Assembly (NCBI GenBank): GCA_964592785.1
Contig: CAZQHU010000002.1
Span: 12,680 to 76,679, forward strand
Direction of reading: 5' to 3'
From: an uncultured Gammaproteobacteria bacterium
GTDB lineage: Bacteria; Patescibacteriota; Patescibacteriia; Magasanikbacterales; UBA922
DNA length: 64,000 nucleotides
The position numbers and the translations under genes were made by a program. Shown here one piece after another: positions 12,862-63,320 of the stretch (the first letter of the stretch is position 1; each line of letters begins with the position of its first letter). The notes beneath the pieces are model-generated. The model searched no databases, was not told where the DNA came from, and worked only from the letters and a program-made list of their open reading frames with translations.

Positions 12862-12903
12862 CCCCGGGTAACGCGTAATGGCGACCCGGGGCTTCACTTT
12901 TTT
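12862..12903 (+). terminator. Intrinsic terminator closing GC-rich island 1
   Basis: ccccggg...cccgggg stem with a 16-nt loop, then cttcac and a T6 run. Confidence 0.6.
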
Positions 12904-13396
12904 ACTCAATTTTTTTTATATTTTTCGCTTTATCAATAAACAAAACCCCATCCAAATGATCCACTTCATGCTGAATCACTCGCGCGAAATAACCATGAGC
13001 TTTAAATTTTATTTCTTCACCATGTTCATTCCAAGCTCGTACTTCAATATCTGAATATCTTTTCACTTTGCCAATAGTTTTGGGAACTGATAAACAACCT
13101 TCTTCTTCTACATTGGTTTTACGACTAGTTTTTTGCCAAATAGGATTTACCAAAACCAAGTCAGCGATGGGTAGTTTATTTTTTTTATCCATTTTTAGAG
13201 CTTCTTGGCCAATGATACAAAGACGAATATTATGTCCAATTTGTGGAGCTGCCAAACCAATGCCATCGGACTCATACATTTTGGGGATCATCTCCTCAAT
13301 CAATTGTTGAGTTTTTTTTAATAATAAAAAATCACGGTCAATTTCTTGGGAACGTTCTCTAAGGGAAGAGGTTGGTAGGGTAATAATAGACAGCAT
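12902..13396 (-). CDS. def: Peptide deformylase
   Basis: Def motifs GLAAPQIG, EGCLSVP and HEVDHLDG. Confidence 0.95.
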   Translation of the reverse strand: MLSIITLPTSSLRERSQEIDRDFLLLKKTQQLIEEMIPKMYESDGIGLAAPQIGHNIRLCIIGQEALKMDKKNKLPIADLVLVNPIWQKTSRKTNVEEEGCLSVPKTIGKVKRYSDIEVRAWNEHGEEIKFKAHGYFARVIQHEVDHLDGVLFIDKAKNIKKIE

Positions 13397-13467
13397 ATTT
13401 TTATGTCACCCCTGCGAAGGCAGGGGTCTAATTGAGATTCCTGCTTTCGCAGGAATGACAGCTTATT

Positions 13468-13758
13468 TTATTCTTTTTTTTGCTTTTTGTCAAGGCTAGG
13501 CACTTCTTTACTTTTCCAAATAAAAAGCTTGCCAGGAGTGCTGGCGTTACTTTGTTTAATTTCCGAAAAAATTCTTTGAGCCTCTTTTACTCCAATCCTC
13601 TTGATAACTCCCAAATACATGGCAAATTTTTTTCTTTCTCCAAAAGCAGTGGAAATTTGATCCGCCCAATAATGTACTTCTGAATGTATATTTTTATTTT
13701 TTTCTTTTCTGGGCTGAATGAGTTTGCCAATACTGTCCATATTTTTAATCCAAAACAA
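13468..13758 (-). CDS. Hypothetical small protein
   Basis: ORF only, 96 aa and basic; no recognisable family. Confidence 0.3.
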   Translation of the reverse strand: MFWIKNMDSIGKLIQPRKEKNKNIHSEVHYWADQISTAFGERKKFAMYLGVIKRIGVKEAQRIFSEIKQSNASTPGKLFIWKSKEVPSLDKKQKKE

Positions 13759-17197: not shown

Positions 17198-19834
17198 TTA
17201 TTTTATCAAAATTTTATTTTTTTCCACCTCGATCTTTACATTTTGTCCTTCTTGAATTTTACCTTCAATAATCAAAAGCGAGAGGGGATTGAGGACTTCA
17301 GTTTGGATTAAACGTTTGAGTGGACGAGCACCAAGATTGGGATCATAACCTTTTTTACCCAAATAATCTTTGGTTTTCCCCAAAATATTGAGAGTAATCT
17401 TTTTTTCAGAAAGACGGTCAATAACTTTTTGAAGTTGTAAATCCACAATTTGTCGAATTTCTTTTTCTCCCAGAGGGTGGAACATAATTATTTCATCAAG
17501 ACGGTTGAGAAATTCTGGTTTGAAGTTTTCTTTGAGTTTTTCTAGGATTTTTTCTTTAATATTTTCTTCGCGATTTTTTCCATTTTTTTTGTTTTCAACT
17601 CCAAAACCAAATTCTCCACCTTTGTTCATCTGCATGATTATTTCTGAGCCAATATTACTGGTCATGATGATGACCGTATTTTTGAAATTTATCTTTCTTC
17701 CTTTAGCATCGGTTAAATGTCCATCTTCGAGTATTTGCAACATCATATTGAAAACATCGGGGTGAGCTTTCTCTATTTCATCAAAAAGAATCACAGAATA
17801 AGGCCGACGACGAATTATTTCAGTCAGTTGTCCTCCTTCTTCATAACCAACATAGCCAGGAGGCGAACCAATCATTTTGCTGGTGGAATGTTTTTCCATA
17901 TATTCACTCATATCCACTCGGACTAGGGCTTCTTCATCGTTAAAAAGAAATTCTGCCAAAGCTTTGGCTAATTCTGTTTTGCCAACTCCAGTCGGCCCCA
18001 TGAAGATGAAGGAACCAATAGGTCGTTTTTCTTCACCAATCCCTGCGCGTGAACGACGGATAGCGTTGGCTACTGCGGTGATGGCCTCTGTTTGACCGAT
18101 CACCCGTTTGGAAAGTTCGGCTTCTAGATGGGCCAATTTTTTCACTTCATCTTGAAGCATTTTGGAGACTGGAATACCAGTCCAACGTGAGACTACACCG
18201 GCAATATCTTCTTCAGTAACTTCTTCTTTTAAAATTATTCTACCTTTTTGAATTTCCGCCAATTTTATTTCATTTTTTTTGATAGCTTCTTCCAGTAAAG
18301 GAACTTGTCCATAGCGAACTTCGGCTACTTTTTGTAAATTGCCACGACGTTCTTCTATATCGGCTTGAGACTTGAGTTTCTCAATTTCTTTTTTGTGTTC
18401 GCGAATTTTAGTAATGATATCTTTTTCATTTTTCCAATGAGCTTCCAGTTCATTACTTTTTTCTTTGAGATTGGCTAATTCTTGTTTTAATTTTTTTTCT
18501 CTTTCTTTTGATTCTTGATCAGATTCTTTTTTCAAAGCTCGCAGTTCAATATCTATTTTCATCATTTTGCGTTTCATTTTATCAAGATCATCAGGCATGG
18601 AATCTATTTCCATACGAAGTGCCGAGGTGGCTTCATCTACCAGGTCAATAGCTTTATCAGGTAAAAATCTATCGGTAATATAGCGATTACTAAGCTCTAC
18701 CGCTGCCACGATCGCTGGATCGGTGATACGCACACCATGATGAACTTCATATTTTTCTTTTATTCCACGTAAGATGGCGATAGCATCATCCACTGCAGGT
18801 TCACTCACCAAGACTGGTTGAAAACGACGTTCAAAAGCCGCGTCTTTTTCAATGTGTTTTTGGTATTCTTTCAAAGTAGTGGCGCCAATAGTGTGAAGTT
18901 CGCCACGAGCCAAAGCCGGTTTCAACATATTGCTAGCATCAATTGCCCCCTCACTTGAACCAGCACCGACAATAGTGTGCAATTCATCAATGAACAAAAT
19001 TATTTTACCATTGGATTCTGTCACTTCTTTTAAAACTGCTTTGAAGCGTTCCTCAAATTCACCACGAAATTTTGTCCCGGCTATAAGAGCCCCAACATCT
19101 AGAGCAATCACTTCTTTGTCTTTGAGACTTTCTGGTACGTCACCATTGACAATTCTTTGAGCCAAACCTTCAACAATTGCTGTTTTTCCTACACCAGGTT
19201 CACCAATTAAAACTGGATTATTTTTGGTTCGTCTAGACAAAACTTGCATTACTCGACGAATTTCATCATCACGACCGATCACTGGATCAAGTTTTTCTTT
19301 ACGCGCAAATTCTGTAAGATTTTTTCCGTATTTTTCCAAAGCTTGATATTTGCTCTCCGGTTCAGGGGAATCTACTTTTTGGTTACCGCGAATTAAAACT
19401 AAAGTTTTCAAAATCTCAGCGTATTGAATTCCCTGATGAGAGAGAGTATCACTAATCGGATTTTTATTGGTCAAAAATGCCAAAAGCAGGTGTTCTACTG
19501 AAATATAATCATCACCCATTTTTTGGGCTTCATTTTGAGCGTTTTGTAAAATATACATCATGGCTGGACCAAGCATTATTTGTCCCAAACCACCAGCTGG
19601 AGAAGAACCAAATTGTTTGGGCAGAACCCCAATCATTTTTTGAACTTCCAAACGTAATTGTTCCAAATTGATATTTAACTTTTTAAAAAGAGAAATAACC
19701 ACACCTGCTTCATCTTCTAAAAGTGACAAAAAAAGATGGGGCGGTTCTACTTGTGGCTGACCATTTTCATGGGCTATTTGTGAAGCTCTTTGCAGGGCTT
19801 CTTGGGATTTATGGGTAAAATTTTGTGGATTCAT
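17198..19834 (-). CDS. clpB: ATP-dependent chaperone ClpB (Hsp100)
   Basis: Two AAA+ modules ([18 protein letters not shown]; [15 protein letters not shown]), a middle coiled-coil domain and a Clp N domain; 878 aa. Confidence 0.95.
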
Positions 19835-19942
19835 AAAGTTTTGTCACCCTGAACTTGTTTCAAGGTCTTTTTTAGGTTTTATTTTTTAGTAAATATAATT
19901 TTAGAAAAGATGCTGAAATAAATTCAGCATGACAATTCTATC

Positions 19943-19961
19943 ACTCAATATATGAGAGTGA
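19943..19961. promoter_or_regulatory. CIRCE-like inverted repeat CACTC-N9-GAGTG upstream of clpB
   Basis: tatCACTCaatatatgaGAGTGata matches the core of the HrcA CIRCE consensus TTAGCACTC-N9-GAGTGCTAA, with the exact 9-nt spacer. Confidence 0.35.
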
Positions 19962-19976
19962 TAATATTATACTATA

Positions 19977-19996
19977 TTGTCAAACACTGTCAAGTG
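19977..19996. promoter_or_regulatory. CtsR-box-like direct heptad repeat TGTCAAA-cac-TGTCAAG upstream of clpB
   Basis: Matches the CtsR operator consensus (A/G)GTCAAA-NAN-(A/G)GTCAAA; a third GTCAAAT lies at about 20042. Confidence 0.4.
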
Positions 19997-20061
19997 TGAT
20001 AATATTATAGCATAATTTTGCTATTTATTTGTAGTAAATTTGTCAAATTAGGGATAAAATA

Positions 20062-20526
20062 GTGTTTGAAATTTTTTACTTAATTATGAATAGTGTTGTA
20101 CTTAAAAAAGCCACTCTCAATGATTATAAAGAAGTTGCTGAAATAGAAAAAATGGCTAGTTCAAAAACATACTCAGCTAGATTAAAGGAAAATGAAATCA
20201 AAAATTTTATTGAAAAAGATTTTGTTTTTCTTATTATACACGATCAAACAACTGTCGGATTAACATCTTTTCAAGTTTTAAAAAATAAAATCGCGCATTG
20301 CAATGGATTGGCTATTTACCCAAAATATAGAAGAAAAGGCTTTGCTAAAAAGGCAATGAATTTATTGCTAAATAAAATGAATAAGTATCAACATGTTGAA
20401 TTGGTTGTTCACCCATATAATAATACCGCGATTACTCTTTATCTCTCTTTGGGTTTTAAAATTACAAAATGGTTAAATAATCACTTTGGGGATAATGAGC
20501 CAAGACTTTTAATGATCAGAAAATAG
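20062..20526 (+). CDS. GNAT-family N-acetyltransferase
   Basis: Acetyl-CoA binding region YRRKGFAKKAMNLLL and the GNAT fold pattern. Confidence 0.75.
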   Translation: MFEIFYLIMNSVVLKKATLNDYKEVAEIEKMASSKTYSARLKENEIKNFIEKDFVFLIIHDQTTVGLTSFQVLKNKIAHCNGLAIYPKYRRKGFAKKAMNLLLNKMNKYQHVELVVHPYNNTAITLYLSLGFKITKWLNNHFGDNEPRLLMIRK

Positions 20527-28572: not shown

Positions 28573-30167
28573 ACTACACTTTTTTTACCAGTCAATTCGT
28601 AATAAACGTTTTCAGGCAAACGATTTTCTAATAAAATCACTGTTTTGGTATTTTTTAAAGATTTGAGATAATTGAGTAATTCTCTATTTTCAAAAATGAA
28701 ATTAACTTTGGTATTGAACCTATCGCCTACTCCCTCTGCCAAGGCCAAAGCTTGATCTTTGTTTATAATTATTAATTCTTCGGCTACCAGAGAGATTTCT
28801 TCCCCGATTGATCTATGTATTTCAAAACTTTTTTCTCCTAGTTCCAACATGCCTCTAGTCACAATCACTCGTCGGTATTCAGAGGGAAAAGTTTTTAATA
28901 CATCCAAAACAGCCAAAAAACCATTGGGATTGGAATTGTAGCTGTCGTCCAAAACTTTGGCTTGGCCATATTCATAAATTTGCAGTGATCCTTCTGGTAA
29001 TTTTAAAGTTAAACAACGTTCTCTAACTTGTTGGCGAGTCATACCTAGAAATTTTCCTATTAAAAAGCAGGGAGCAATATTCATAAAATTATGTTCTCCT
29101 ATAATTGGTACATCGACCTGCCCCAATTCTCCATCCATGTAACCAACACAATGAATTCCTTGATCGGTACGCTTTACATCTTTGATTAAAAAATCAGGTT
29201 TGTTTTCTTCCTTCGCACCAAAGGTCCAAACTGGAGATTTAAGTTCATTTACAAATTCCATACACAGCTGATTGTCAGCATTGGTAACTGCCAATCCATC
29301 TGGAGGTAAAGATCGCAATAATTCGTATTTTGTTTCTTGAGTTTTTTTGATATTTCCAAAAAGAGAAAGATGTTGCTCGTTGATAGCTGTCAAAATTCCT
29401 ATTTTGGGGTGAACAATATTGCAAATTCTTTTTATTTCACCTATACAATAAGCCCCCATTTCCACTATAAAAATTTCAGCATGAGAAAAATCGGCACGAA
29501 GAATAAATTTGGCCACACCAATTTCAGTATTAACATGCTTTGGTGTCATTACTGTTTTAAATTTACCCTGTAAAATATGATGGAGAAAAGTTTTGGTGGT
29601 GGTCTTGCCATAACTACCAGTAATTCCTATTACTATCAAATTGGGATAATGACTTATTTTTTTGGTTGCCTTTTTTATGATCCAGTGTTTGACCAAATCT
29701 GTTAATTTATTAACCAAGAAAACAATGAAAGCTAAAATAAAAAATCGTAAAATTAGTAACATTAGAGGTAGTGTCCACTCTTTTGTAAAAACAAAAAGTC
29801 CACCTTCAAAAACTAGAGCAATAAATACTATTAAAATAGCTTTGGCTGTGAGTACTGGATGAGATAATCTGTGATATAAAAATTTATATAAATTATATAA
29901 AAAATCCAAGCTAAAAATTCCTAATAAAAGATATTTTATAGTTGGAATATCATTAATTGGCCAGAAAAAAATAATTATCGCCAAAGAAGATCGCCAAAAT
30001 AAAGAATATTTCAAAAAAAAGACTTTGCCTTGTTGAGTAGAAAGAAAATCTCTAAAACGATCCAAACGATATTCTTTTAATTGCCAGAGATAACAAAAAT
30101 CAAGGTAATCCACTACAGCACTCAAAAACCATAAGCTGGCGATAATTATATTAATTGGTGAAATCAT
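28569..30167 (-). CDS. Mur ligase family protein (MurF-like) fused to an N-terminal polytopic membrane domain of about 170 aa
   Basis: GITGSYGKTTTK P-loop, a Mur ligase middle domain and a C-domain; the N-terminal 170 aa hold 5-6 TM helices. Confidence 0.7.
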   Translation of the reverse strand: MISPINIIIASLWFLSAVVDYLDFCYLWQLKEYRLDRFRDFLSTQQGKVFFLKYSLFWRSSLAIIIFFWPINDIPTIKYLLLGIFSLDFLYNLYKFLYHRLSHPVLTAKAILIVFIALVFEGGLFVFTKEWTLPLMLLILRFFILAFIVFLVNKLTDLVKHWIIKKATKKISHYPNLIVIGITGSYGKTTTKTFLHHILQGKFKTVMTPKHVNTEIGVAKFILRADFSHAEIFIVEMGAYCIGEIKRICNIVHPKIGILTAINEQHLSLFGNIKKTQETKYELLRSLPPDGLAVTNADNQLCMEFVNELKSPVWTFGAKEENKPDFLIKDVKRTDQGIHCVGYMDGELGQVDVPIIGEHNFMNIAPCFLIGKFLGMTRQQVRERCLTLKLPEGSLQIYEYGQAKVLDDSYNSNPNGFLAVLDVLKTFPSEYRRVIVTRGMLELGEKSFEIHRSIGEEISLVAEELIIINKDQALALAEGVGDRFNTKVNFIFENRELLNYLKSLKNTKTVILLENRLPENVYYELTGKKSVV

Positions 30168-30921
30168 AAATTATTTGCAATAATTTATCCGGCATTTGCA
30201 AGTGTAAACCATGGCGTCCATTTTTAATTATTTCCAATTTTGAATTTTTAATCAATTCATTTAGCTTATAAGCATCTTTAATTGGTAAATAATTGTCCAT
30301 GGTACCCCAAATAATGAGCGCGGGTAGTTTAATTTTATTGGCTTCCTCTCCCCTATCTTGGCGGATGATTTTTTTAAATATTTCGCGTTTAATTCCCGAA
30401 CTATCATGATAATCATGAGCACCAATAGCTTTGTGGTAAATTTCTTCCGCCCAAAGTGAACCTTTTTCTATCCAAGGAATTTTAAAAATTAACTTACCAA
30501 ATTTGGCTCCAATATTAAAAATGATTCTTCTGAAAGTTTTTTTTGGTCTAAAAACCGCTGGTGCCACCAAAACAAGTTTATCAATCATTTCAGGATATTT
30601 ACTAGCAAAAACTGTCGCCACCTGCCCACCAAAACTATGGCCTAACAATATTACTTCGTCATTCTGAATCCGCCCTTTGGCGGACGAAGAATCTCTTTCG
30701 TTTAGATCTTTCGATTCTGTCTTGTTTCTCTCAAGGTGATTTCTTACAAAATCTACATACTCCTCTACCCCCCAAGTTGTCTCTGGGCAGGGCTCATCAC
30801 CAAAACATGGTAAATTAATTATCTCAACCTCAAAATATTTACTAGCTAAATTAGCAAATTCTTTCCAAGTTTCTTTGTTGCCTCCCCAGCCAGGGAGAAT
30901 TAGCAAAGATTTTTTATTCAT
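30151..30921 (-). CDS. Alpha/beta hydrolase-fold protein
   Basis: GHSFGG nucleophile elbow; 256 aa. Confidence 0.7.
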   Translation of the reverse strand: MNKKSLLILPGWGGNKETWKEFANLASKYFEVEIINLPCFGDEPCPETTWGVEEYVDFVRNHLERNKTESKDLNERDSSSAKGRIQNDEVILLGHSFGGQVATVFASKYPEMIDKLVLVAPAVFRPKKTFRRIIFNIGAKFGKLIFKIPWIEKGSLWAEEIYHKAIGAHDYHDSSGIKREIFKKIIRQDRGEEANKIKLPALIIWGTMDNYLPIKDAYKLNELIKNSKLEIIKNGRHGLHLQMPDKLLQIIYDFTN

Positions 30922-50363: not shown

Positions 50364-50801
50364 TTATTCTTTAATATTAATCTTCTTATATTTCTTCCCT
50401 ACTCTCACTCGATTCATTTCACGATCAATCACTGCTTGCAACTTGGCATAATCCACATTTTCTTGTCCTTTAACTTTGGCCATTTCTTCTTCAGCACGCC
50501 TTCTCGCTTCTTCAGCGCGGTCAATATCAATTATCTCCGCACGTTCAGCATTATCAGCAAGAATAACTATTTCATTGTTGGCACGAACCTCCAAAAAACC
50601 ACCAGAAACAGCGATGATATGCTCACCTTCTTTATCTACAATTTTAAGTTCACCAGCTTGTAAAATTGAAACAAGTGGCGAATGATGCGGTAAAACAGTA
50701 ATTTCACCAGTAGTTGTTGGAATGGAAACTTGAAGAACATCGTCTTCATAAACAACTTTTTCTGGTGTAGCGATTTTGAAGTGGATTGTTGACACTGACA
50801 T
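50364..50801 (-). CDS. atpC: F1 ATP synthase epsilon subunit
   Basis: N-terminal beta-sandwich and a C-terminal helical hairpin; it is the last gene of the atp operon. Confidence 0.85.
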   Translation of the reverse strand: MSVSTIHFKIATPEKVVYEDDVLQVSIPTTTGEITVLPHHSPLVSILQAGELKIVDKEGEHIIAVSGGFLEVRANNEIVILADNAERAEIIDIDRAEEARRRAEEEMAKVKGQENVDYAKLQAVIDREMNRVRVGKKYKKINIKE

Positions 50802-50906
50802 AAACGTCTGTCATCCTGAATTTATTTCAGGATCTTTCTTAAAATAATATTTACTTAATTGATAATATGACGGAAAGATGCTGAAACAAGTTCAGCATGA
50901 CAATTC

Positions 50907-52295
<1,389 letters not shown>

Positions 52296-52454
52296 TCATT
52301 CCGAGCGAAGCGAGGAATCCCTTTACAAGTCTCGAACACTCGATTTATATTATTAATTTTTTAGTAAAATTATTTAATAAATTATTATATAAAGCATCTT
52401 TTAAACCCTTGAAAAGGGATCCCTCACCCCTATCGGGGATTCGGGATGATATTA

Positions 52455-53432
52455 CTACTCCAACGCTGCCGCTCCACCAGCAATTTCTGCAATTTCTTGT
52501 GTAATACCAGCCTGGCGTGCTTTATTAAAGGTTAAAGTTAATTCTTTAATCATGTCTGAAGCAGCATCAGATGCATTCCTCATAGCCATCATCCGAGCAG
52601 AATGCTCCGAAGCAGCAGATTCAAGAGCTGCTTGGTAAACTTGTGTTTCCACCAAACGGGGTAAAATTATTTCCAAAACATTATCTTGGGTTGGTTCAAA
52701 AATATAATTATCCAATTCTATTTCTGCTTCTTCAACATTTAAATCTTTTATTTTTTTCTTCATTTCTGTAACATCCTCTCCCAATTCACCGATCATTTTT
52801 TCCAAATCTATTTGTGAAATAGGTAAAACTTGTCGTAATTTAGCTACTTGATTTACAGTTGACTTAAAATCTGTGTAAGCAACAACTACTTTATCATAAG
52901 TTTTCTTCTGGTATTCATCTATCACTAACCGGGAAATAGGCAGAATATCATTCAACTTCGGTGTATCAGACATTTCGGAAAAACTGGCAATGAGATTATA
53001 GCCCATTTTTTTGGCAAAATCAGCGCCTTTTTTCCCTACTCCAACCACATCAACTTGAATATTTTCTGAAGGTTCTATAAAACCATCCTGCACTCTCTGA
53101 CGGCTGATATTCTTAGGATCTGCCAATTGAGCAGCAGTTTTTTTGATAATATTGGCATTGAAACTGCCACACAACCCACGATTGGAAGTAATAAGAATAA
53201 CTAATAATTTTTTAACAGGACGAACTTCTAACAATGAAAATTGTTCTTTTTGTACTTTGGATAATTTTACGAGCAAATCCCAAGCCAGCGTCGCATAAGT
53301 GCGCGTATTAACAGCAGCTTCGGTCGCTTTCCGCATCTTGACTGCTGAAATCATTTCCATGGCGCGAGTAATCTTCTTGGTCGAGCCGACAGATTTGATT
53401 CTTCTTTTAATTGCCTTGGTATTTACGGGCAT
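52455..53432 (-). CDS. atpG: F1 ATP synthase gamma subunit
   Basis: ITKAMEMISAVKMRKA N-terminus and the conserved C-terminal helix. Confidence 0.92.
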   Translation of the reverse strand: MPVNTKAIKRRIKSVGSTKKITRAMEMISAVKMRKATEAAVNTRTYATLAWDLLVKLSKVQKEQFSLLEVRPVKKLLVILITSNRGLCGSFNANIIKKTAAQLADPKNISRQRVQDGFIEPSENIQVDVVGVGKKGADFAKKMGYNLIASFSEMSDTPKLNDILPISRLVIDEYQKKTYDKVVVAYTDFKSTVNQVAKLRQVLPISQIDLEKMIGELGEDVTEMKKKIKDLNVEEAEIELDNYIFEPTQDNVLEIILPRLVETQVYQAALESAASEHSARMMAMRNASDAASDMIKELTLTFNKARQAGITQEIAEIAGGAAALE

Positions 53433-53683
53433 ACAGGTTCATTCCGAGCGAAGCGAGGAATCTTTCTTACCTCGTACTCTCTTAGAAAATAAATTATTGA
53501 TTATAAAATTCTAATTTTTTATTCATACTTTCAGTTTCTTGTGTATGAACAATAAATATTATTACATAGTACGTCAATAAAATCATTCCTACTAATATCA
53601 TAGCCAATAAAATTGGATTACCTTTCTTCATATTATATCTTAAGAAAGATTCCTCACTCGACTTGAGCCGAGATTCGGAATGA

Positions 53684-55171
53684 CTAACGCACAAACTCCC
53701 CACAAGCTTCTTTCAATTCGTTCTCCACGTTTTCATCCCATTCACCCTTAGCAAGCTTATCTAATAATGTTTTTTTGGTTTTGTGCATGAAATCAATAAA
53801 CTTCTTCTCAGCTTCTGAAACTTCTTTAACTCCAAATTTATTGAAATACTCATTGGATACAGCATAAATAACTGCTACTTGATCTTCTACCGCCATTGGA
53901 CTGTATTGAGGTTGTTTTAAAAGTTCTGTCATGCGCTGACCAAGATCAATTTGTTTCTTGGTTTCCGGATCAAGATCAGAAGATAACTGGGCAAAAGCTT
54001 CTAGTTCACGAAACTGGGCCATAGCCAATTTTAATTTACCGGCAACTTTTTTCATAGATTTGATTTGTGCTGAACCACCAACACGAGAAACTGAAATACC
54101 AACATTCAAAGCAGGACGAATACCACGATAGAACAAATCTGTTTCCAAGAAAATTTGGCCATCAGTAATGGAAATAACATTGGTTGGAATATAAGCAGTC
54201 ACGTCCCCTGCCTGAGTTTCAATGATTGGTAATGCTGTAATAGAACCACCGCCATATTTTTCATTAAGCTTGCAGGCACGTTCCAAAAGTCTTGAGTGTA
54301 AATAAAACACGTCTCCTGGATAAGCTTCACGCCCTGGCGGACGACGAAGTAAGAGGGATATTTCACGATAAGCCCAAGCTTGTTTGGTAAGATCATCATA
54401 AATAATGAGTACATCTTCGCCTTGATCAGCAAAATATTCTGCCATGGCTACCCCAGCATAAGGAGCAATAAAGGACATAGCAGCTGGATCAGAAGCGCCA
54501 GCCACAACTACTGTAGTGTATTCCATAGCGCCAGCTTCTTCTAGCTTGGCAACAATGCGAGCCACTTTGGATTCTTTTTGACCAACAGCCACATAAATAC
54601 ATTTCATGTTTTGGCCTTTTTGATTGATGATAGTGTCAACAGCAATAGCAGTTTTACCAGTTTGGCGGTCACCAATAATAAGTTCGCGCTGACCACGACC
54701 AATCGGAATCATAGCATCAATCGCTTTGATACCAGTTTGCACTGGTTCGTGCACGCCCTGGCGAGTCATGACGCCTGGAGCAATCTTTTCTACTGGATAA
54801 AATTTGTCAGCTTTTATTTCACCTTTGCCATCAATAGCTTGGCCAAGAGCATTCACTACACGCCCTACAACATTTTTTCCAACTGGAACTGACAAAATAC
54901 GACCGGTACGCTTTACACTATCACCTTCTTTAATACCTTTATAATCACCCAAAATAACCGCACCAACAGTTTCTTCTTCCAAGTTCAAAGCCACGCCAAA
55001 AACCCCACCAGTAAATTCCAACATTTCTTGGTATTGACAATTGGAAAGTCCGGTCATACGAGCAATACCATCGCCCACTTCAATGACTGTGCCGACTTCC
55101 TCAACTTCAACTGACTTTTCAAATTCGGCAATGTGTTTTTTTAATTCTTCAACGATCTGATTACTTGACAT
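53684..55171 (-). CDS. atpA: F1 ATP synthase alpha subunit
   Basis: [10 protein letters not shown]-loop. Confidence 0.97.
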
Positions 55172-55657: not shown

Positions 55658-55664
55658 AAACTAA

Positions 55665-55745
55665 TATACAGATTGGAACACGGATCTAACGGATCAAACG
55701 GATTTGAACGGATTCGTTTTAATTCGTTAAATCCGTTCAATCCGT
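55665..55745. repeat. Array of AACGGAT heptamers (4 direct, then inverted copies) forming an imperfect palindrome in the atpF-atpH spacer
   Basis: aacacggatctaacggatcaaacggatttgaacggattcgttttaattcgttaaatccgttcaatccgtgtgc. Confidence 0.7.
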
Positions 55746-57991: not shown

Positions 57992-58291
57992 ATGCATTTT
58001 TCACTGTCCGTTCACAGCACCTCGTTCCTGATCATGGTCATCAGAAAGAGAGGGCGTAGGATTGCTGCGTTCGCAGGGCCAACTCGAGAAGACATCCTGA
58101 GACTGATGAATGGCATGGGCTACGACCCCCAGGAGATCTCCACCGCGCATGAGGCCACACCGCGACACCTGGAAATGATCGCGAAATACCAGGCGCGATC
58201 GTTCGCCGGCTTCATCATTGCGATGATGAAGAGTGGAAAATGCTCCGAAGAGTCCTACTACATCGGTGAACTCTACAAGCGCGCTGGCTGA
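57992..58291 (+). CDS. Small hypothetical protein (99 aa) in GC-rich island 3; paralog of the 12582-12854 protein
   Basis: Consensus promoter and AGGAGG SD; GC-rich; leader, start and peptide motifs shared with island 1. Confidence 0.55.
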   Translation: MHFSLSVHSTSFLIMVIRKRGRRIAAFAGPTREDILRLMNGMGYDPQEISTAHEATPRHLEMIAKYQARSFAGFIIAMMKSGKCSEESYYIGELYKRAG

Positions 58292-58443
58292 GCGAGTCTC
58301 AATCATCACGAATGCCTCCAGCATGCCCGGCACGCAACCACCCCACCAGTGCCGGCATCGTTCTTTCCCACCACTCCGGCACACCCCAGTTATTATCTCT
58401 AGAAGGTAATAAATGAAAAAAACCGGAGTGAGTGAAGAAAAAT

Positions 58444-58508: not shown

Positions 58509-59459
58509 TTATACTTTTATTTTATTGAAAAGTCGTAAAGCATTTTCCAAAGTAATTTTCTCCACTTCCTCAACAGATAAATGCCTAATCCCCGCAATTT
58601 TCTTCACCACTTCTTCCACCATCCAAGGTTCACATTTTTGCCCGCGATAAGCTTGAGGGGCCAGATATGGCGCATCGGTTTCCACCAAAATTCTATCCAA
58701 AGGACATTTTTCCACAACTTCCAATAAATCCAATGTTGGTTGAGGATCAGTTTTACGTGCAGGAAAAGTGATGACACCAGTGAAACCAATATAGAGTCCC
58801 AAAGTAAGGAATTTTTCTGCTTGTTGCCAATTACCGCCATAGCAGTGGACTACGCCCCAAGGTTCATTCCGAATCCCGCTCAAGCGGAGTGAGGAATCTT
58901 TCGAAGTAAGAACCTGTTGAATTACATTAGAATTGTGTACCCCAAAGTTATCTTCTCCGAAAGATTTCTCGCCTTTTAGTCTCGAAATGAGTGGAAACAT
59001 CTCATCGTAAGCATCGCGAATGTGAATAACAAGAGGTAAATTATGCTTTTGCGCAAAATTATATTGCTTAATAAAAATTTCTCTTTGTTTCTCTAAAACT
59101 TTTTCTTTATCTAACTCTTCCGGAAGATGAAAAAGTTCCAGCCCACACTCCCCTACTGCTATCACTTTTTTTGACTGTGCCAATTCATCATAAAATTTTT
59201 CATCAAAATCTTCTTCGTGCGATAAAAAACTGGATTCTTCCTCGTCTACTTGTTTGGCATGAAGGTGAATTGGATGAAGACCAATTGTCGCATAAATATT
59301 TTCATATTTTTCTGCCATTTCCACAGCTTTTTTACTGGTGTCCATTTGTGTACCAACAGCATTCATAACCACACCTTTCTGACGACAACGCGACAAGACG
59401 GCCTCGCGGTCGTCTTGATATCCTTGAAACTGAATATGACAATGAGTATCAATCATCAT
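58509..59459 (-). CDS. tatD: TatD-family metal-dependent hydrolase
   Basis: MMIDTHCHIQF and later His/Glu/Asp motifs; contains an in-frame repeat-element insertion at 58862-58898. Confidence 0.88.
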   Translation of the reverse strand: MMIDTHCHIQFQGYQDDREAVLSRCRQKGVVMNAVGTQMDTSKKAVEMAEKYENIYATIGLHPIHLHAKQVDEEESSFLSHEEDFDEKFYDELAQSKKVIAVGECGLELFHLPEELDKEKVLEKQREIFIKQYNFAQKHNLPLVIHIRDAYDEMFPLISRLKGEKSFGEDNFGVHNSNVIQQVLTSKDSSLRLSGIRNEPWGVVHCYGGNWQQAEKFLTLGLYIGFTGVITFPARKTDPQPTLDLLEVVEKCPLDRILVETDAPYLAPQAYRGQKCEPWMVEEVVKKIAGIRHLSVEEVEKITLENALRLFNKIKV

Positions 59460-60094: not shown

Positions 60095-60286
60095 TCACGA
60101 CATCTTTTCAACACTTTGTCCTCGAGTCAGCCACTGCCAACCCACAACGAAGTAGTAAGCAGTGTGTCTCCAGACAAGACCGGAAATGTACCAATACCGC
60201 TGCCTAACCGTAAGCGGCTTGGTATCCATCTTGACAACACCGACCCCCTTGCCCCACCATAGAGTCTTTTCCGCTGAAGTAGCCAT
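60095..60286 (-). CDS. Small Trp-rich hypothetical ORF (64 aa) in GC-rich island 4
   Basis: AGGGGG SD-like sequence 7 nt before the ATG (MATSAEKTLWWGKG...); GC-rich; a 16-bp perfect hairpin follows. May be a structured RNA rather than a protein. Confidence 0.3.
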   Translation of the reverse strand: MATSAEKTLWWGKGVGVVKMDTKPLTVRQRYWYISGLVWRHTAYYFVVGWQWLTRGQSVEKMS

Positions 60287-60297
60287 TGGCAAACCCC

Positions 60298-61830
60298 CTA
60301 TTTTTCGAGCCGTGGAAAAAGAATTTCCTTTGCGCCTATGAGAGATCCCCCCCTAAGCGCGCCCCATGTTACTACTTTATCACTTGTATTTAATTGATTC
60401 AATATCTTTTCCGCAGTCTCGGGAATAATCGGAAATAAAGCCACAGCAATATGACGCAAACCTTCAGCTAGCTGATATAACAAACCAGAAATGTCTTCAC
60501 CAGCTTTGGCTTTTTTCCAAGGTTCTTGTTCAGAAATGAAACCGTCTAATCCTGCAACAAACTTATTTATTAAATTAACAACTTCTTCAAATTTATATTC
60601 ACCTAAATATTTATTATACTCTGTCCAAAAACTTTCCACTTTCCACTTTCCACTTTCCACTTGAGGAATCTTTGATTCCGAATATTTTTCAACCATTGTT
60701 AAAATCCTACTAGTCAAATTCCCTACTCCATTTACAAGATGTGCGGTATAAAATTCTTCAAAACGAGTAATACTAAAATCACCATCATCATAAGCTGGCA
60801 TGCCTCCAAGCAAAAAATAACGTACTGCATCTGTACCATATTTTTCAACTACTTTATAAGGTTCCACTACATTACCAAGAGATTTACTCATCTTTTGTCC
60901 TTCAGAAGTAATAAATCCATGAATAAACACTTGTTTTGAGTTTGGTAAACCAGCTGACATGAGCATTGCTTGCCACATAGCAGTCTGCTGACGTAAATTG
61001 TCTTTACCAGCTACTTGTACTCCCGGCCAAAACTCTGTATATAAGTCGGGTTTACCCGCCGAAGCTTTAGCGTAGATGGGCTTGTCCGGCGTAGCCTTGG
61101 CGAAGCCGGGCCAACCGAGTGTGGAAATATAGTTTATCAAAGCATCAAACCAGACATACATTACTTGCGTTTCATCTCCTGGTACAGGAATACCCCAAGG
61201 CATTTTTTCAGCCAATCTAGAAATACTAAAATCTTCCAAACCTCGCTCAACAAAGTTTTTAATTTCTAGCTGTCTATTTTGAGGTATAACAAAATTTGAA
61301 TTTTTTTCGTATAATTTTAATAAAGGTTTTTGGTATTTAGAAAATTTAAAAAAATAATTTTCTTCTTCAATTAATTCCAATTCCAAATTGGGGTGAACTG
61401 GACATTTACCATCAACTAGCTCTGAATCCGTTTTTTCCAATTCACAACCTACACAATATTTAACACTATAATTCTTTTTATAAATATCACCATTTTTTTC
61501 ACATAATTTCCAAAATTCCTGAGCAGCTTCTATGTGATGTTTATCAGTGGTGCGAATAAAATTGGTATAACTTAAATTCAAAGCTTGCTTCAAAGAATCA
61601 AATTTAGCAGCATATTCATCACAATATTTTTGTGGGTCAATTCCCAACTCTGTGGCTTTGCGAAAAATCTTTAGGCCGTGTTCATCCGTACCAGTATTAA
61701 AAATTACTTCTTCACCCAATAATTTGTGATAACGAGCGAGAACATCAGCTTGAATAATTTCCAAAGCAAAACCGATGTGAGGTTCAGCGTTTACATATGG
61801 CAAGGTGGTTGTAATATAATAGTTTTTCAT
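60298..61830 (-). CDS. metG: Methionyl-tRNA synthetase
   Basis: TTTLPYVNAEPHIGFALE (HIGH), KMSKS, and a zinc-knuckle CxxC...CPVH. Carries a (ttccac)4 insertion and a 30-nt tandem duplication. Confidence 0.95.
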   Translation of the reverse strand: MKNYYITTTLPYVNAEPHIGFALEIIQADVLARYHKLLGEEVIFNTGTDEHGLKIFRKATELGIDPQKYCDEYAAKFDSLKQALNLSYTNFIRTTDKHHIEAAQEFWKLCEKNGDIYKKNYSVKYCVGCELEKTDSELVDGKCPVHPNLELELIEEENYFFKFSKYQKPLLKLYEKNSNFVIPQNRQLEIKNFVERGLEDFSISRLAEKMPWGIPVPGDETQVMYVWFDALINYISTLGWPGFAKATPDKPIYAKASAGKPDLYTEFWPGVQVAGKDNLRQQTAMWQAMLMSAGLPNSKQVFIHGFITSEGQKMSKSLGNVVEPYKVVEKYGTDAVRYFLLGGMPAYDDGDFSITRFEEFYTAHLVNGVGNLTSRILTMVEKYSESKIPQVESGKWKVESFWTEYNKYLGEYKFEEVVNLINKFVAGLDGFISEQEPWKKAKAGEDISGLLYQLAEGLRHIAVALFPIIPETAEKILNQLNTSDKVVTWGALRGGSLIGAKEILFPRLEK

Positions 61831-61833
61831 AAC

Positions 61834-61858
61834 TTAGTAAGTAGTAATTAGTAAATAG
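61834..61858. repeat. Left 25-bp perfect inverted repeat flanking the four-helix-bundle gene
   Basis: ttagtaagtagtaattagtaaatag; its exact reverse complement lies at 62244-62268. Confidence 0.85.
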
Positions 61859-61861
61859 AAA

Positions 61862-62224
61862 TTAGGATAGGTTAGATTCTGTAGATCGAATTAAACCATT
61901 AATTAACTTTGCAATTTCAATACTTTGTTCACCTAATTTCCGACTTATTATACCATCAATAAAATTTAAATCTTTAGCTAATAAAATAAAATTTTGGACT
62001 TCTGCCACTGAACCCCTAGCTTGATAATAAAATCTTATTTTATCCTTAAAATGATATCTAGCAAAACCTTCAGCAATATTGGCAGTTATGGAACTAGAAG
62101 CTCTTCGTAACTGACTAATAATTCCATATAATTCTTCTCTTGGCAAATCATTTGTCATCTTATAAATTTCTAATACTAGCAAATGACCCTTCTTCCAAGC
62201 ATCTAGATCATAAAAATTCATCAT
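61862..62224 (-). CDS. Four-helix-bundle protein of the 23S rRNA intervening-sequence (IVS) protein family
   Basis: MMNFYDLDAWKKGHLLVLEIYKMTNDLPREELYGIISQLRRASSSITANIAEGFARYHFKDKIRFYYQARGSVAEVQ is typical of the TIGR02436/S23-IVS family. Confidence 0.8.
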   Translation of the reverse strand: MMNFYDLDAWKKGHLLVLEIYKMTNDLPREELYGIISQLRRASSSITANIAEGFARYHFKDKIRFYYQARGSVAEVQNFILLAKDLNFIDGIISRKLGEQSIEIAKLINGLIRSTESNLS

Positions 62225-62243
62225 AAAAAAGTTACTAGTTACT

Positions 62244-62268
62244 ATTTACTAATTACTACTTACTAACC
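62244..62268. repeat. Right 25-bp perfect inverted repeat; supplies the last codons and stop of rsmI
   Basis: ctatttactaattactacttactaa is the reverse complement of the left copy. Confidence 0.85.
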
Positions 62269-62984
62269 ACCACCACAAATTCCCCTTTTTCACTAATATT
62301 CATTTTTAAAATTTCTTGAATTGTTCCTCGATAAACAGTTTCAAATTTTTTGGTCAACTCACGACAAACGCAAATCTGTCGTTTTTTATCCAAAACTTCG
62401 GCCAATTCGCCCAAACATTTCTTGATCCTATGTGATGATTCATAAAAGGCCACAGTATATTCTGCTTTAACCACTTCTTTAAAAAATGTTTGTCGGCCTT
62501 TTTTGTGTGGAGGAAAACCGAGAAATAAAAATTTATTCGTATCAAACCCTGATATAGATAATGCAGTTATAACTGCGCTTGGACCTGGGATTGGCACTAC
62601 CACGTCATCCTGAGCGATAGCCGAAGGATCTCTTTCCTCAACGAGATATTTCGACTTTGCCCTTCGGGCTTCGCTCAATATGACGCTAACAAGTTCATTC
62701 CCCGGATCACTAATCCCTGGTGTACCGGCATCAGTTACCAAGGCCAGATTCTTACCACTTTCTAATAATTTCTCAATTTCCATTAATTTCCCAGTCTCGC
62801 TATGTTGATGATAAGAAATTGTTTTGGTTTTTATATTAAAATGATTCAAAAGTTTTTGGGTATTCCTGGTATCCTCGCATAAAATAAAATCCACGTCCTT
62901 TAAAATTTCCAAAGCACGCAAAGTAACATCACCAAGATTTCCAATTGGTGTAGCCACTATGTAGAGTTTGCCTAGTTCTGACAT
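62256..62984 (-). CDS. rsmI: 16S rRNA (cytidine1402-2'-O)-methyltransferase RsmI
   Basis: LYIVATPIGNLGDVTLRALEILKDVDFILCEDTRNTQKLL; tetrapyrrole-methylase fold; contains a roughly 22-aa insertion. Confidence 0.88.
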   Translation of the reverse strand: MSELGKLYIVATPIGNLGDVTLRALEILKDVDFILCEDTRNTQKLLNHFNIKTKTISYHQHSETGKLMEIEKLLESGKNLALVTDAGTPGISDPGNELVSVILSEARRAKSKYLVEERDPSAIAQDDVVVPIPGPSAVITALSISGFDTNKFLFLGFPPHKKGRQTFFKEVVKAEYTVAFYESSHRIKKCLGELAEVLDKKRQICVCRELTKKFETVYRGTIQEILKMNISEKGEFVVVVSK

Positions 62985-63049: not shown

Positions 63050-63290
63050 AACTTTATCTTGTCAAAGGAGACCTATCTTCGAAGAAAGACAGCACCTACC
63101 GCTACGCAGGGAAAGTGGCTACACGCCGTTCAACTGCCTGGCTATCCTTCTGGATGGCCTCTTCGACCTCGTCGCCCTTCTCCAAGACAAGTGGCGCCAA
63201 GCCGCTTGAACCATTCGCCGGCCAGCTATCCACGCGCCGGCACTTCCAAAAATAAACCCGCCCCACATATTCCGGGGCGGGTATTTTTAT
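63050..63290 (+). ncRNA. GC-rich island 5: candidate small RNA, or degenerated relative of the island 1/3 genes
   Basis: About 240 nt at more than 55% GC between a promoter-like element and a strong terminator. Its only ORF starts at TTG without an SD and encodes a P/R/S-rich low-complexity peptide. Its 5' end (aaaggagac...) resembles the island 1 leader. Confidence 0.3.
63255..63289. terminator. Bidirectional intrinsic terminator (island 5 and the ferredoxin/nifU operon)
   Basis: acccgccccacatattccggggcgggt flanked by A-runs and T-runs. Confidence 0.75.
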
Positions 63291-63320
63291 CCTCTTCTTT
63301 TTAAAAGTAAAAGAGGAAAA

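Follow-up and report, generated by a model that had tools for sequence, protein, structure and literature searches.

Hairpin dimers of the CGTC-tagged repeat class inserted upstream of clpB and in the atp operon of a Candidatus Magasanikbacteria genome

Repetitive extragenic palindromic (REP) sequences with a CGTC tag were surveyed by Di Nocera, De Gregorio and Rocco (2013; BMC Genomics 14:522, PMC3733652), who described a CGTC or TGTC tag, a stem of 8-9 bp starting with AT, a loop of 4-5 nt and a tail of 3 nt, and found the units mainly as dimers with spacers of 20-100 bp. In that survey, heterodimers prevail in the CGTC-2 group, in-frame intragenic copies occur, no association of CGTC repeats with a transposase was found, and Neisseria dRS3 and Rickettsia RPE-6 were assigned to CGTC-1 and Rickettsia RPE-4 to CGTC-4. 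Chenal et al. (2025; Nat Commun 16:2388, PMC11893778) reported that NTS, an extended dRS3, is the target of SsnA, a single-domain GIY-YIG nuclease of ~100 amino acids that binds and cuts NTS solely as single-stranded DNA (ssDNA) and on one strand only; cutting depends on the three bases (GTC) that precede the palindrome and binding on the C that follows it, and the NTS-ssnA-NTS layout was called insertion sequence (IS)-like. Here, a 64-kb window (the whole stretch of DNA that was analysed, from contig CAZQHU010000002.1) of a Candidatus Magasanikbacteria genome, a lineage of the candidate phyla radiation (CPR), was investigated, in which two modules, A and B, precede clpB and atpC. The results showed that the modules are members of the class formed by CGTC-tagged REPs and Ssn-related motifs (SRMs), and that they are insertions into formerly compact spacers and leaders. 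The element thus belongs to a described class; what is new is the host lineage, a hairpin variant termed type II and the comparative evidence of insertion.

Coordinates are positions in the window, and L-numbers label loci retrieved from other genomes. A preliminary description of the window had named 19840-19940 and 50803-50909 as homologous, which alignment bore out with exact limits of 19842-19934 and 50809-50902 and a mean column identity of 81% (MAFFT; 75% in a global alignment from tag to tag). Consensus patterns of hairpins X and Y match modules A and B alone in the window, with 0 matches expected from 100 dinucleotide-preserving shuffles. Each module lies, as had been described, directly 5' of the start codon of a minus-strand gene, at a distance of 7 nt from the clpB ATG (19834-19832) and the atpC ATG (50801-50799), respectively, and module B begins 4 nt past the atpD stop codon (50909-50907). 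Pfam identified the two minus-strand genes as ClpB (17198-19834) and the F1 epsilon subunit AtpC (50364-50801); AtpD (50907-52286) and AtpG (52455-53432) were likewise checked with Pfam. Matches to ClpB assign the window to Candidatus Magasanikbacteria. The parts of the two modules are as follows.

19842-19934: module A (93 bp), dimer with tags outward in the clpB 5' leader
19842-19870: unit X of module A, decayed stem ACCCTGAA/TTCAAGGT, loop CTTGT
19871-19905: AT-rich spacer of module A, 35 nt
19906-19934: unit Y of module A, stem ATGCTGAA/TTCAGCAT, loop ATAAA (plus strand)
50809-50902: module B (94 bp), dimer with tags outward occupying the whole atpD-atpC spacer
50809-50837: unit X of module B, ATCCTGAA-TTTAT-TTCAGGAT
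50874-50902: unit Y of module B, stem ATGCTGAA/TTCAGCAT, loop CTTGT in unit orientation (minus strand)

A search with the hairpin X pattern also matched hairpin Y, on the opposite strand and with two mismatches, indicating that a single unit is present twice, as X and, inverted, as Y. The two hairpins of the preliminary description are therefore both present, but as the halves of a quasi-palindromic dimer. The unit, here called type I, consists of TGTC, AT-(C/G)CTGAA, a 5-nt loop (TTTAT or CTTGT) and TTCAG(G/C)-AT, followed by C and TTT, and in each module the TGTC tags face outward and the T-rich tails inward across an AT-rich spacer of 35-36 nt (36 nt in module B). The sole stem difference between X and Y, C-G versus G-C, is compensated inside each hairpin, implying that the local hairpins are preserved. 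Intact type-I units fold as DNA with energies of -6.2 to -6.8 kcal/mol (z about -4), forming a stem of 8 bp and a loop of 5 nt. In module A, unit X carries a C.A mismatch on the plus strand, where the canonical hairpin is not predicted (-3 kcal/mol, z -0.5), and a T.G wobble at that position on the sense strand. The identity between A and B is 76.6% inverted and 75% direct, and the loops and part of the spacer fit the inverted alignment better; being nearly palindromic, with inverted similarity equal to direct, the modules have no clear polarity relative to the gene. RNA structure prediction, a check that the preliminary description had proposed, folded each whole module into one long hairpin through X:Y pairing (z -5.4 for A and -6.0 for B). 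No Rfam family matched in the window at gathering thresholds, and ranking by E-value in 19780-20080 returned sub-threshold hairpin look-alikes (microRNA precursors) only; ARAGORN gave no match, and the literature, searched for the literal hairpin strings and the peptides they encode, yielded none either.

Comparison with the CGTC-tagged REPs showed an unpaired (C/T)GTC at one end of the palindrome and inverted dimers with spacers of 35 and 36 nt whose units differ by a compensated pair. Stems of 8-9 bp starting with A-T then T-A are found in the type-I units and in a further unit at 13432-13460; type-II units start with AT but have only five Watson-Crick basal pairs before G.A mismatches. Likewise, the loop is 5 nt in modules A and B and 4 nt in 13432-13460, whereas type-II units depart from 4-5 nt. 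With CGTC-2 REPs in particular, the repeats share the tag, the 8-bp AT stem, the 5-nt loop, inverted heterodimers, in-frame copies and the lack of association with REP-associated tyrosine transposases (RAYTs). They also have the same hairpin sequence as the CGTC-2 units of Sphingomonadales and Sulfurovum: the Sulfurovum CGTC-2 peptide RHSELVSGS, given in the supplement of PMC3733652, back-translates in our hands to cgtcattctgaacttgtttcaggatc, the hairpin of modules A and B. They differ from CGTC-2 REPs in their host, the CPR (Magasanikbacteria) being a group outside the 2013 survey; in the tail, a short unpaired one being present but reading CTT(T), or CTT(T)(C), against CCA in the published consensus; in the type-II hairpin, which breaks the loop rule by having a basal stem of 5 bp, mismatches of G.A/A.G and, distally, a hairpin that is GCGAAGC-like or nested; and in location, the window copies standing just before start codons and the units of the 2013 survey mostly just after stop codons.

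With NTS and the SRMs, the repeats share a directional hairpin with GTC directly 5' and C directly 3' of the palindrome, which holds in the window as well as in unselected hairpins elsewhere. Bracketing of a small single-domain GIY-YIG gene, a cd10448 gene in the case of NTS, was seen here in other genomes that carry the same hairpin types. The modules are of the same class as NTS and SRMs by architecture, not by match to the published SRM pattern. Neisseria NTS form large clusters, whereas the window repeats are isolated dimers inside operons and genes. The role described for Ssn in Neisseria is to restrict transforming ssDNA. The stems in the window are AT-rich, and no ssn gene was seen there. 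Rickettsia palindromic elements (RPEs) are similar in being palindromic repeats of a reduced genome that lie in-frame in conserved protein genes and leave the frame intact, but belong to another lineage, and the inserts in the window are dimers encoding about 27-40 residues. RPE-1 is said to be the Rickettsia palindromic element that Ogata and co-workers described in 2000.

The atp operons of relatives were gathered by a metagenome scan with AtpG, in which L121 (AtpG 83%, AtpD 95%), L122, L123, L126, L129 and L159 came closest. The atpA-atpG spacer is 2-10 nt in all six and the atpG-atpD spacer 9-44 nt in L121, L122, L123, L126 and L159, while atpD and atpC overlap, or are separated by at most 5 nt, in L122, L125 and L159. 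In L125 (70%), independent type-II dimers occupy two of these atp spacers, but there is none between atpD and atpC. In front of clpB, L204 (82%) has a promoter, an operator resembling CIRCE (controlling inverted repeat of chaperone expression), 30 nt and the ATG, without a module; at the same place L203 (83%) has a dimer with hairpins identical to those of module B, and L201 (83%) a type-II dimer. Because the atp spacers of the closest relatives are compact and empty and the L204 clpB leader is empty, the modules are insertions, and presence or absence together with differing subtypes at one site indicates repeated insertion rather than one inherited leader. These filled and empty orthologous sites are direct comparative evidence of this repeat class inserting in CPR genomes.

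The preliminary description had left open whether the module is a dispersed repeat resembling a MITE (a miniature transposable element with inverted repeats) or a shared regulatory or mRNA-stabilising leader. The former is upheld by at least eight dimers in the window, the empty orthologous sites and at least 120 matching stretches in many phyla. The latter, a dedicated cis-acting RNA leader or intercistronic element (for mRNA stability, translation rate or temperature sensing) common to stress and highly expressed genes, we consider improbable. The modules do lie on transcribed DNA 7 nt ahead of start codons, and a dimer of some kind is present in the clpB leader of each of three related lineages; yet the module is missing from the closest relatives' atp spacers and the L204 clpB leader, the differing subtypes at filled sites point to repeated insertion, and the same family lies in-frame inside three open reading frames (ORFs). 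Their RNAs fold far better than shuffles (z values above), the decayed stem position in copy A forms a G.U wobble solely on the sense strand, and the clpB leader has a terminator-like score where CTTTTCT follows unit Y; against these stand the orientation-neutral module and the lack of any Shine-Dalgarno (SD) sequence that it could sequester. Nor is there a bias towards start codons across phyla, a long ORF starting within 80 nt for 65 of 228 units, with no peak in the distances. Liang, Rudd and Deutscher are said to have found in 2015 that in E. coli a REP hairpin can lower expression of the upstream gene if it lies no more than about 15 nt from the stop codon, which we count in favour of the leader.

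A further argument against a leader comes from the clpB promoter and CIRCE-like operator, which are conserved independently of the module.

19938-19993, minus strand: native clpB control region, TTGACA-16-TATAAT followed by the CIRCE-like inverted repeat TTATCACTC-N9-GAGTGATAG, outside the repeat and upstream of module A

The promoter matches the sigma-70-type consensus at 12 of 12 positions, and both promoter and CIRCE-like repeat are kept in L201, L203 and L204 with or without the module, suggesting from sequence that this CPR lineage has clpB under HrcA-type control. The possibility that clpB has an RNA thermometer was considered and rejected, the CIRCE-like operator being the conserved element and the module being absent in L204. 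The preliminary description had hairpin X abutting an SD sequence; none is there, and most genes of the window have AT-rich upstream regions without an SD match, which suggests SD-independent initiation in this genome. The idea that the purine-rich 3' arm of the hairpin supplies or hides an SD sequence was accordingly discarded. Side effects of the modules on mRNA are possible: by analogy with E. coli REPs near stop codons, a drop in expression of the upstream cistron or an uncoupling of translation could result. For annotation, the modules should be masked as repeat dimers of CGTC/SRM type and not recorded as regulatory leaders.

Species-representative genomes (185,579) were scanned with TCATSCTGAANTTNTTTCAGSATC, and the results below refer to the matches listed. 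The hairpin was found in at least 120 stretches, compared with ~0.3 expected by chance on our own estimate. The hosts include Sphingomonadales, Pedobacter and other Bacteroidota, Nitrospirota, Treponema, Gastranaerophilales (Melainabacteria), Ignavibacteria, Sulfurovaceae, Heliobacteriaceae, many CPR lineages and one Nanoarchaeota metagenome-assembled genome, and most matches have an inverted partner 10-100 nt away. Covariation was tested by anchoring on the loop and inner stem and leaving out the matches used for selection. The result showed that 69 of the 97 unselected partner hairpins have all five outer pairs (5/5) in Watson-Crick form, with nine stem variants; GTC precedes 62 of these 69 and C follows nearly all of them. 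Stems that covary beside a constant tag and C imply that what is fixed is the fold, together with the tag and the trailing C, and that the sequence of the stem is free. Tails in other genomes are CTT, CTC, CCA, CTG and CTA, the first C alone being constant.

The covariation bears on the possibility that the modules are classical MITEs, that is, internally deleted DDE-transposase IS elements moved by cut-and-paste through their terminal inverted repeats. The terminal inverted repeats of ~28 bp, the length of ~95-250 bp, the AT-rich core and the intergenic position would suit a MITE, and size and adjoining genes recall the Correia elements (CREE) of Neisseria, with which the modules share a length of about 100-150 bp, terminal inverted repeats, a place beside genes, co-transcription and a possible long RNA hairpin. 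Correia elements, however, duplicate a TA target, and no target duplication was seen at any window copy. To our knowledge, the ends of Correia elements are not self-folding tagged hairpins, whereas the ends here are covarying hairpins with free stem and fixed tag and trailing C, and therefore fit structure-specific recognition of ssDNA rather than a double-stranded transposase site. Solo units, tandem arrays and an apparent ~26-nt unit splitting another hairpin stem occur, and the full-length relatives encode a GIY-YIG protein of ~100 amino acids, not a DDE enzyme. A MITE in the classical sense is thus very unlikely. The split stem is in L108 (Magasanikbacteria GW2011_GWC2_37_14; reverse strand, about 970-1110), where a unit GATGCTGAAACGAGT...TCAGCATGAC is interrupted by the 26-nt single unit AATGTCACCCTGAACTTGTTTCAGGG, suggesting that a solo unit is able to insert alone. 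Same-type dimers stand in tandem in L102 (Melioribacteraceae; six copies, ~145-nt period) and in L039 (Ignavibacterium; two copies, 82-nt period).

GIY-YIG ORFs were sought by a motif scan of all retrieved loci, with assignment by Pfam PF01541 only. On this basis, ORFs of 94-108 amino acids that match PF01541 alone are bracketed by inverted hairpins of the class in L008, L060, L062, L086, L141 and L205, the hairpins being of type I in the first four. In L141, a CPR contig, a hairpin-GIY-YIG-hairpin cassette occupies the atpA-atpG spacer, where the window has a 248-bp element. In L205 (Patescibacteria, GCA_018830025.1), a homologue of the L141 protein is bracketed by TCATCCTGAGCGTAGCGAAGGATCTTTCGAAG and its inverse, which are the type-II hairpin of the window. 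These results show that the hairpin class brackets small GIY-YIG genes, in the CPR as elsewhere. The L141 and L205 cassettes, at the same kind of site, offer a concrete model for a possible mobilisation of the repeats by Ssn proteins, a question raised by PMC11893778. A second GIY-YIG locus, L207, has no clear flanking hairpins, and an inverted hairpin pair ~1 kb apart in L077 was dismissed as an autonomous element, the ORFs it encloses holding no nuclease or transposase recognisable by eye.

The nature of the bracketed genes also separates the modules from REPINs in the strict sense, REP doublets mobilised by a RAYT (an IS200/IS605-like Y1 HUH transposase). The architecture described in PMC3116915 and PMC3337134 is the same, namely two inverted REP hairpins with a spacer and an unpaired tag beside the stem, and REPINs (Bertels and Rainey 2011) offer further likenesses: the doublet acts as one unit, singletons are decayed dimers, and the repeats also flank a nuclease or transposase gene present in single copy. 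RAYT-linked REPs, however, have a GTAG tag, and CGTC REPs are without transposase association (PMC3733652). REPINs pair the GTAG tag with a Y1 HUH transposase, whereas the CGTC tag goes with a GIY-YIG nuclease here: the hairpin-bracketed ORFs are GIY-YIG, not Y1 transposases, and no Y1 transposase was found among 20 scanned window ORFs. Mobilisation by a RAYT is therefore hardly to be expected.

Taken together, we conclude that the modules are probably inserted dimers of the CGTC-tagged REP type, non-autonomous derivatives of hairpin-nuclease-hairpin cassettes, and that any effect on expression is a tolerated by-product. The gene-less dimers would be MITE- or REPIN-like derivatives of the hairpin-GIY-YIG-hairpin cassettes, which an Ssn-type nuclease supplied in trans may recognise as ssDNA hairpins and nick just outside the tag. 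As part of the clpB 5' UTR and of the polycistronic atp mRNA, the modules are co-transcribed with clpB and the atp operon and must fold in the mRNA, as two stem-loops or one long hairpin, with consequences for expression that the host would tolerate and that would not be the reason for their presence. Several observations weigh against this conclusion. Neither a target-site duplication nor a defined insertion junction was seen at the copies, and Ssn proteins are not known to have transposition activity. The SRM pattern HGTCWYN(0-2)YYVSBRHN(0-5)WNVSBRGN(0-2)RNCYNB has 0 matches on the two window strands, because it calls for G+C-rich positions in the stem, whereas the stems of the window are AT-rich. 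Type-II hairpins are individually no stabler than shuffles under nearest-neighbour DNA parameters. A crude motif scan of the 64-kb window, with Pfam on 20 ORFs, revealed no GIY-YIG ORF; NCBIfam gave no match for the GIY-YIG ORFs; and just 5 of the 120 hairpin-selected loci among the matches listed hold such an ORF, the one in L004 lying 6 kb from the match. Finally, the recurrent 7-nt gap to the start codon, treated below, is not predicted by a purely selfish model.

When the window was scanned for tagged perfect stems as well as for 'TCAT + hairpin + CTTT', six dimers of the family were found besides A and B, giving at least eight in all. Three of them lie in-frame within ORFs, and the five intergenic ones are in the clpB leader, in three successive spacers of the atp operon and upstream of a def-like ORF. 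The preliminary description had two full copies and one diverged relative upstream of atpD. That relative is real, but spans 52294-52450 instead of 52330-52450 and is of the second hairpin subtype; the other five dimers listed here had been overlooked.

52294-52450: type-II dimer spanning the atpG-atpD spacer, TGTCAT-TCCGAGCGAAGCGAGGA-ATC plus inverted ATCAT-CCCGAATCCCCGATAGGGGTGAGGG-ATC, AT-rich core of ~90 nt
53437-53684: 248-bp type-II element spanning the atpA-atpG spacer
13404-13460: compact dimer with 8-nt spacer, TGTCATTCCTGCGAAAGCAGGAATC ... ACCCCTGCCTTCGCAGGGGTGACA, between ORF 13468-13758 and the def-like ORF 12902-13396
58863-58992: in-frame type-II dimer inside the TatD-family ORF 58509-59459 (minus strand)
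62604-62695: in-frame type-II dimer inside the RsmI-like ORF 62256-62984 (minus strand)
about 30658-30740: probable in-frame dimer inside the alpha/beta-hydrolase ORF 30151-30921 (minus strand), a clear unit at 30658-30693 plus a decayed partner

Most copies other than A and B belong to type II, with a 5-bp basal stem of ATTCC/GGAAT or ATCCC/GGGAT. One form continues after the basal stem with G.A/A.G mismatches and a GCGAAGC core, the other reads 'GAATC-stem-loop-stem-GTGA', and the two forms pair as heterodimers. Common to all window copies are the GTC tag (with variants), the AT stem start and C with a T-rich tail. The tag is TGTC in both B units, both A units (the stem of X being decayed) and the units starting at 52294 and 13460, CGTC in the units at 62604 and 30658, and a variant in AGTC (53684), GTTC (53437 and 58863) and TATC (52450). 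Unit 13432-13460 has an 8-bp stem starting with AT and the 4-nt loop GAAA (-7.8 kcal/mol, z -4.7). In the 53437-53684 element, the G of the GTCAT tag is the final base of the atpA stop codon TAG; its minus strand also holds a 45-codon ORF for a hydrophobic peptide (MKKGNPILLAMILVGMILLTYYVIIFIVHTQETESMNKKLEFYNQ) without Pfam match. Residues 159-198 of the TatD ORF have no counterpart in TatD structure 1j6o, and residues 102-128 of the RsmI-like ORF have none in E. coli RsmI 5hw4; both stretches, of 27-40 residues, coincide with the dimers. The repeats thereby explain odd inserts of this size in CPR TatD and RsmI, as well as spurious start-codon calls. Such a call was seen in L203 (1913-2012), where the deposited ClpB starts at an ATG inside the repeat's terminal ...GGATGACA and gains four residues (MTTI) ahead of the conserved MNPQNF start, a repeat-induced misannotation.

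Localisation relative to start codons, another check proposed in the preliminary description, showed a recurrent gap in the window and no bias across phyla. The sequence ...GACA ends exactly 7 nt before the ATG in 4 of the 5 intergenic copies, those of clpB, atpC, atpD (ATG 52286-52284) and the def-like ORF (ATG at 13396), and two of these four are, moreover, 4 nt from the stop codon upstream, the second besides module B being 52294-52450, which begins 4 nt past the atpG stop. The 7-mers differ in sequence, indicating that they are not part of the repeat. In relatives, a gap of 6-7 nt was found in three further cases, but the gap was rejected as a general property, the 228 units from other phyla showing no peak. 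Possible causes are target choice, selection for an unpaired stretch before the start in a genome without SD sequences, or narrow room in short spacers. A bolder proposal, which we hold only tentatively and think more doubtful than not, is that the gene-less dimers, as non-autonomous copies of the cassettes, make Ssn-type ssDNA nucleases the engine of an as yet undescribed kind of transposable element, ranging from Proteobacteria to the CPR and possibly DPANN, whose position in the SD-less genome of this Magasanikbacterium is fixed 7 nt upstream of starts by choice or selection. If true, this would imply a link between insertion and gene starts.

Small insertions seem to have landed in the atp operon again and again. 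The atp spacers of other CPR relatives are enlarged by 0.5-1 kb with extra ORFs, of 123 amino acids in L130 (5936-6420), 144 in L138 (3349-3876) and 249 in L164 (7403-8257), and the L141 GIY-YIG cassette lies at 220-1080. A second, unrelated palindromic repeat family with ACGGAT/ATCCGT-like words was seen in another atp-operon spacer of the window (about 55660-55745) and in the atp spacers of relatives (L124, 4900-5000 and 7460-7557; L127, 1107-1231).

Elsewhere in the window, the GC-rich islands at 58000-58400, 60100-60300 and 63100-63300 (51-57% GC, against 35% for the window) contain implausible ORFs only; they gave no Rfam match at gathering thresholds and weak sub-threshold ones only, and are candidate structured RNAs. 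Between a gene resembling methionyl-tRNA synthetase and the RsmI-like gene, ORF 61862-62224 encodes a 23S rRNA intervening-sequence protein (PF05635, four-helix bundle). It is bracketed by 32-nt inverted repeats (61834-61865 and 62235-62266) that are 94% complementary, so that the locus 61834-62266 looks like another small selfish cassette.

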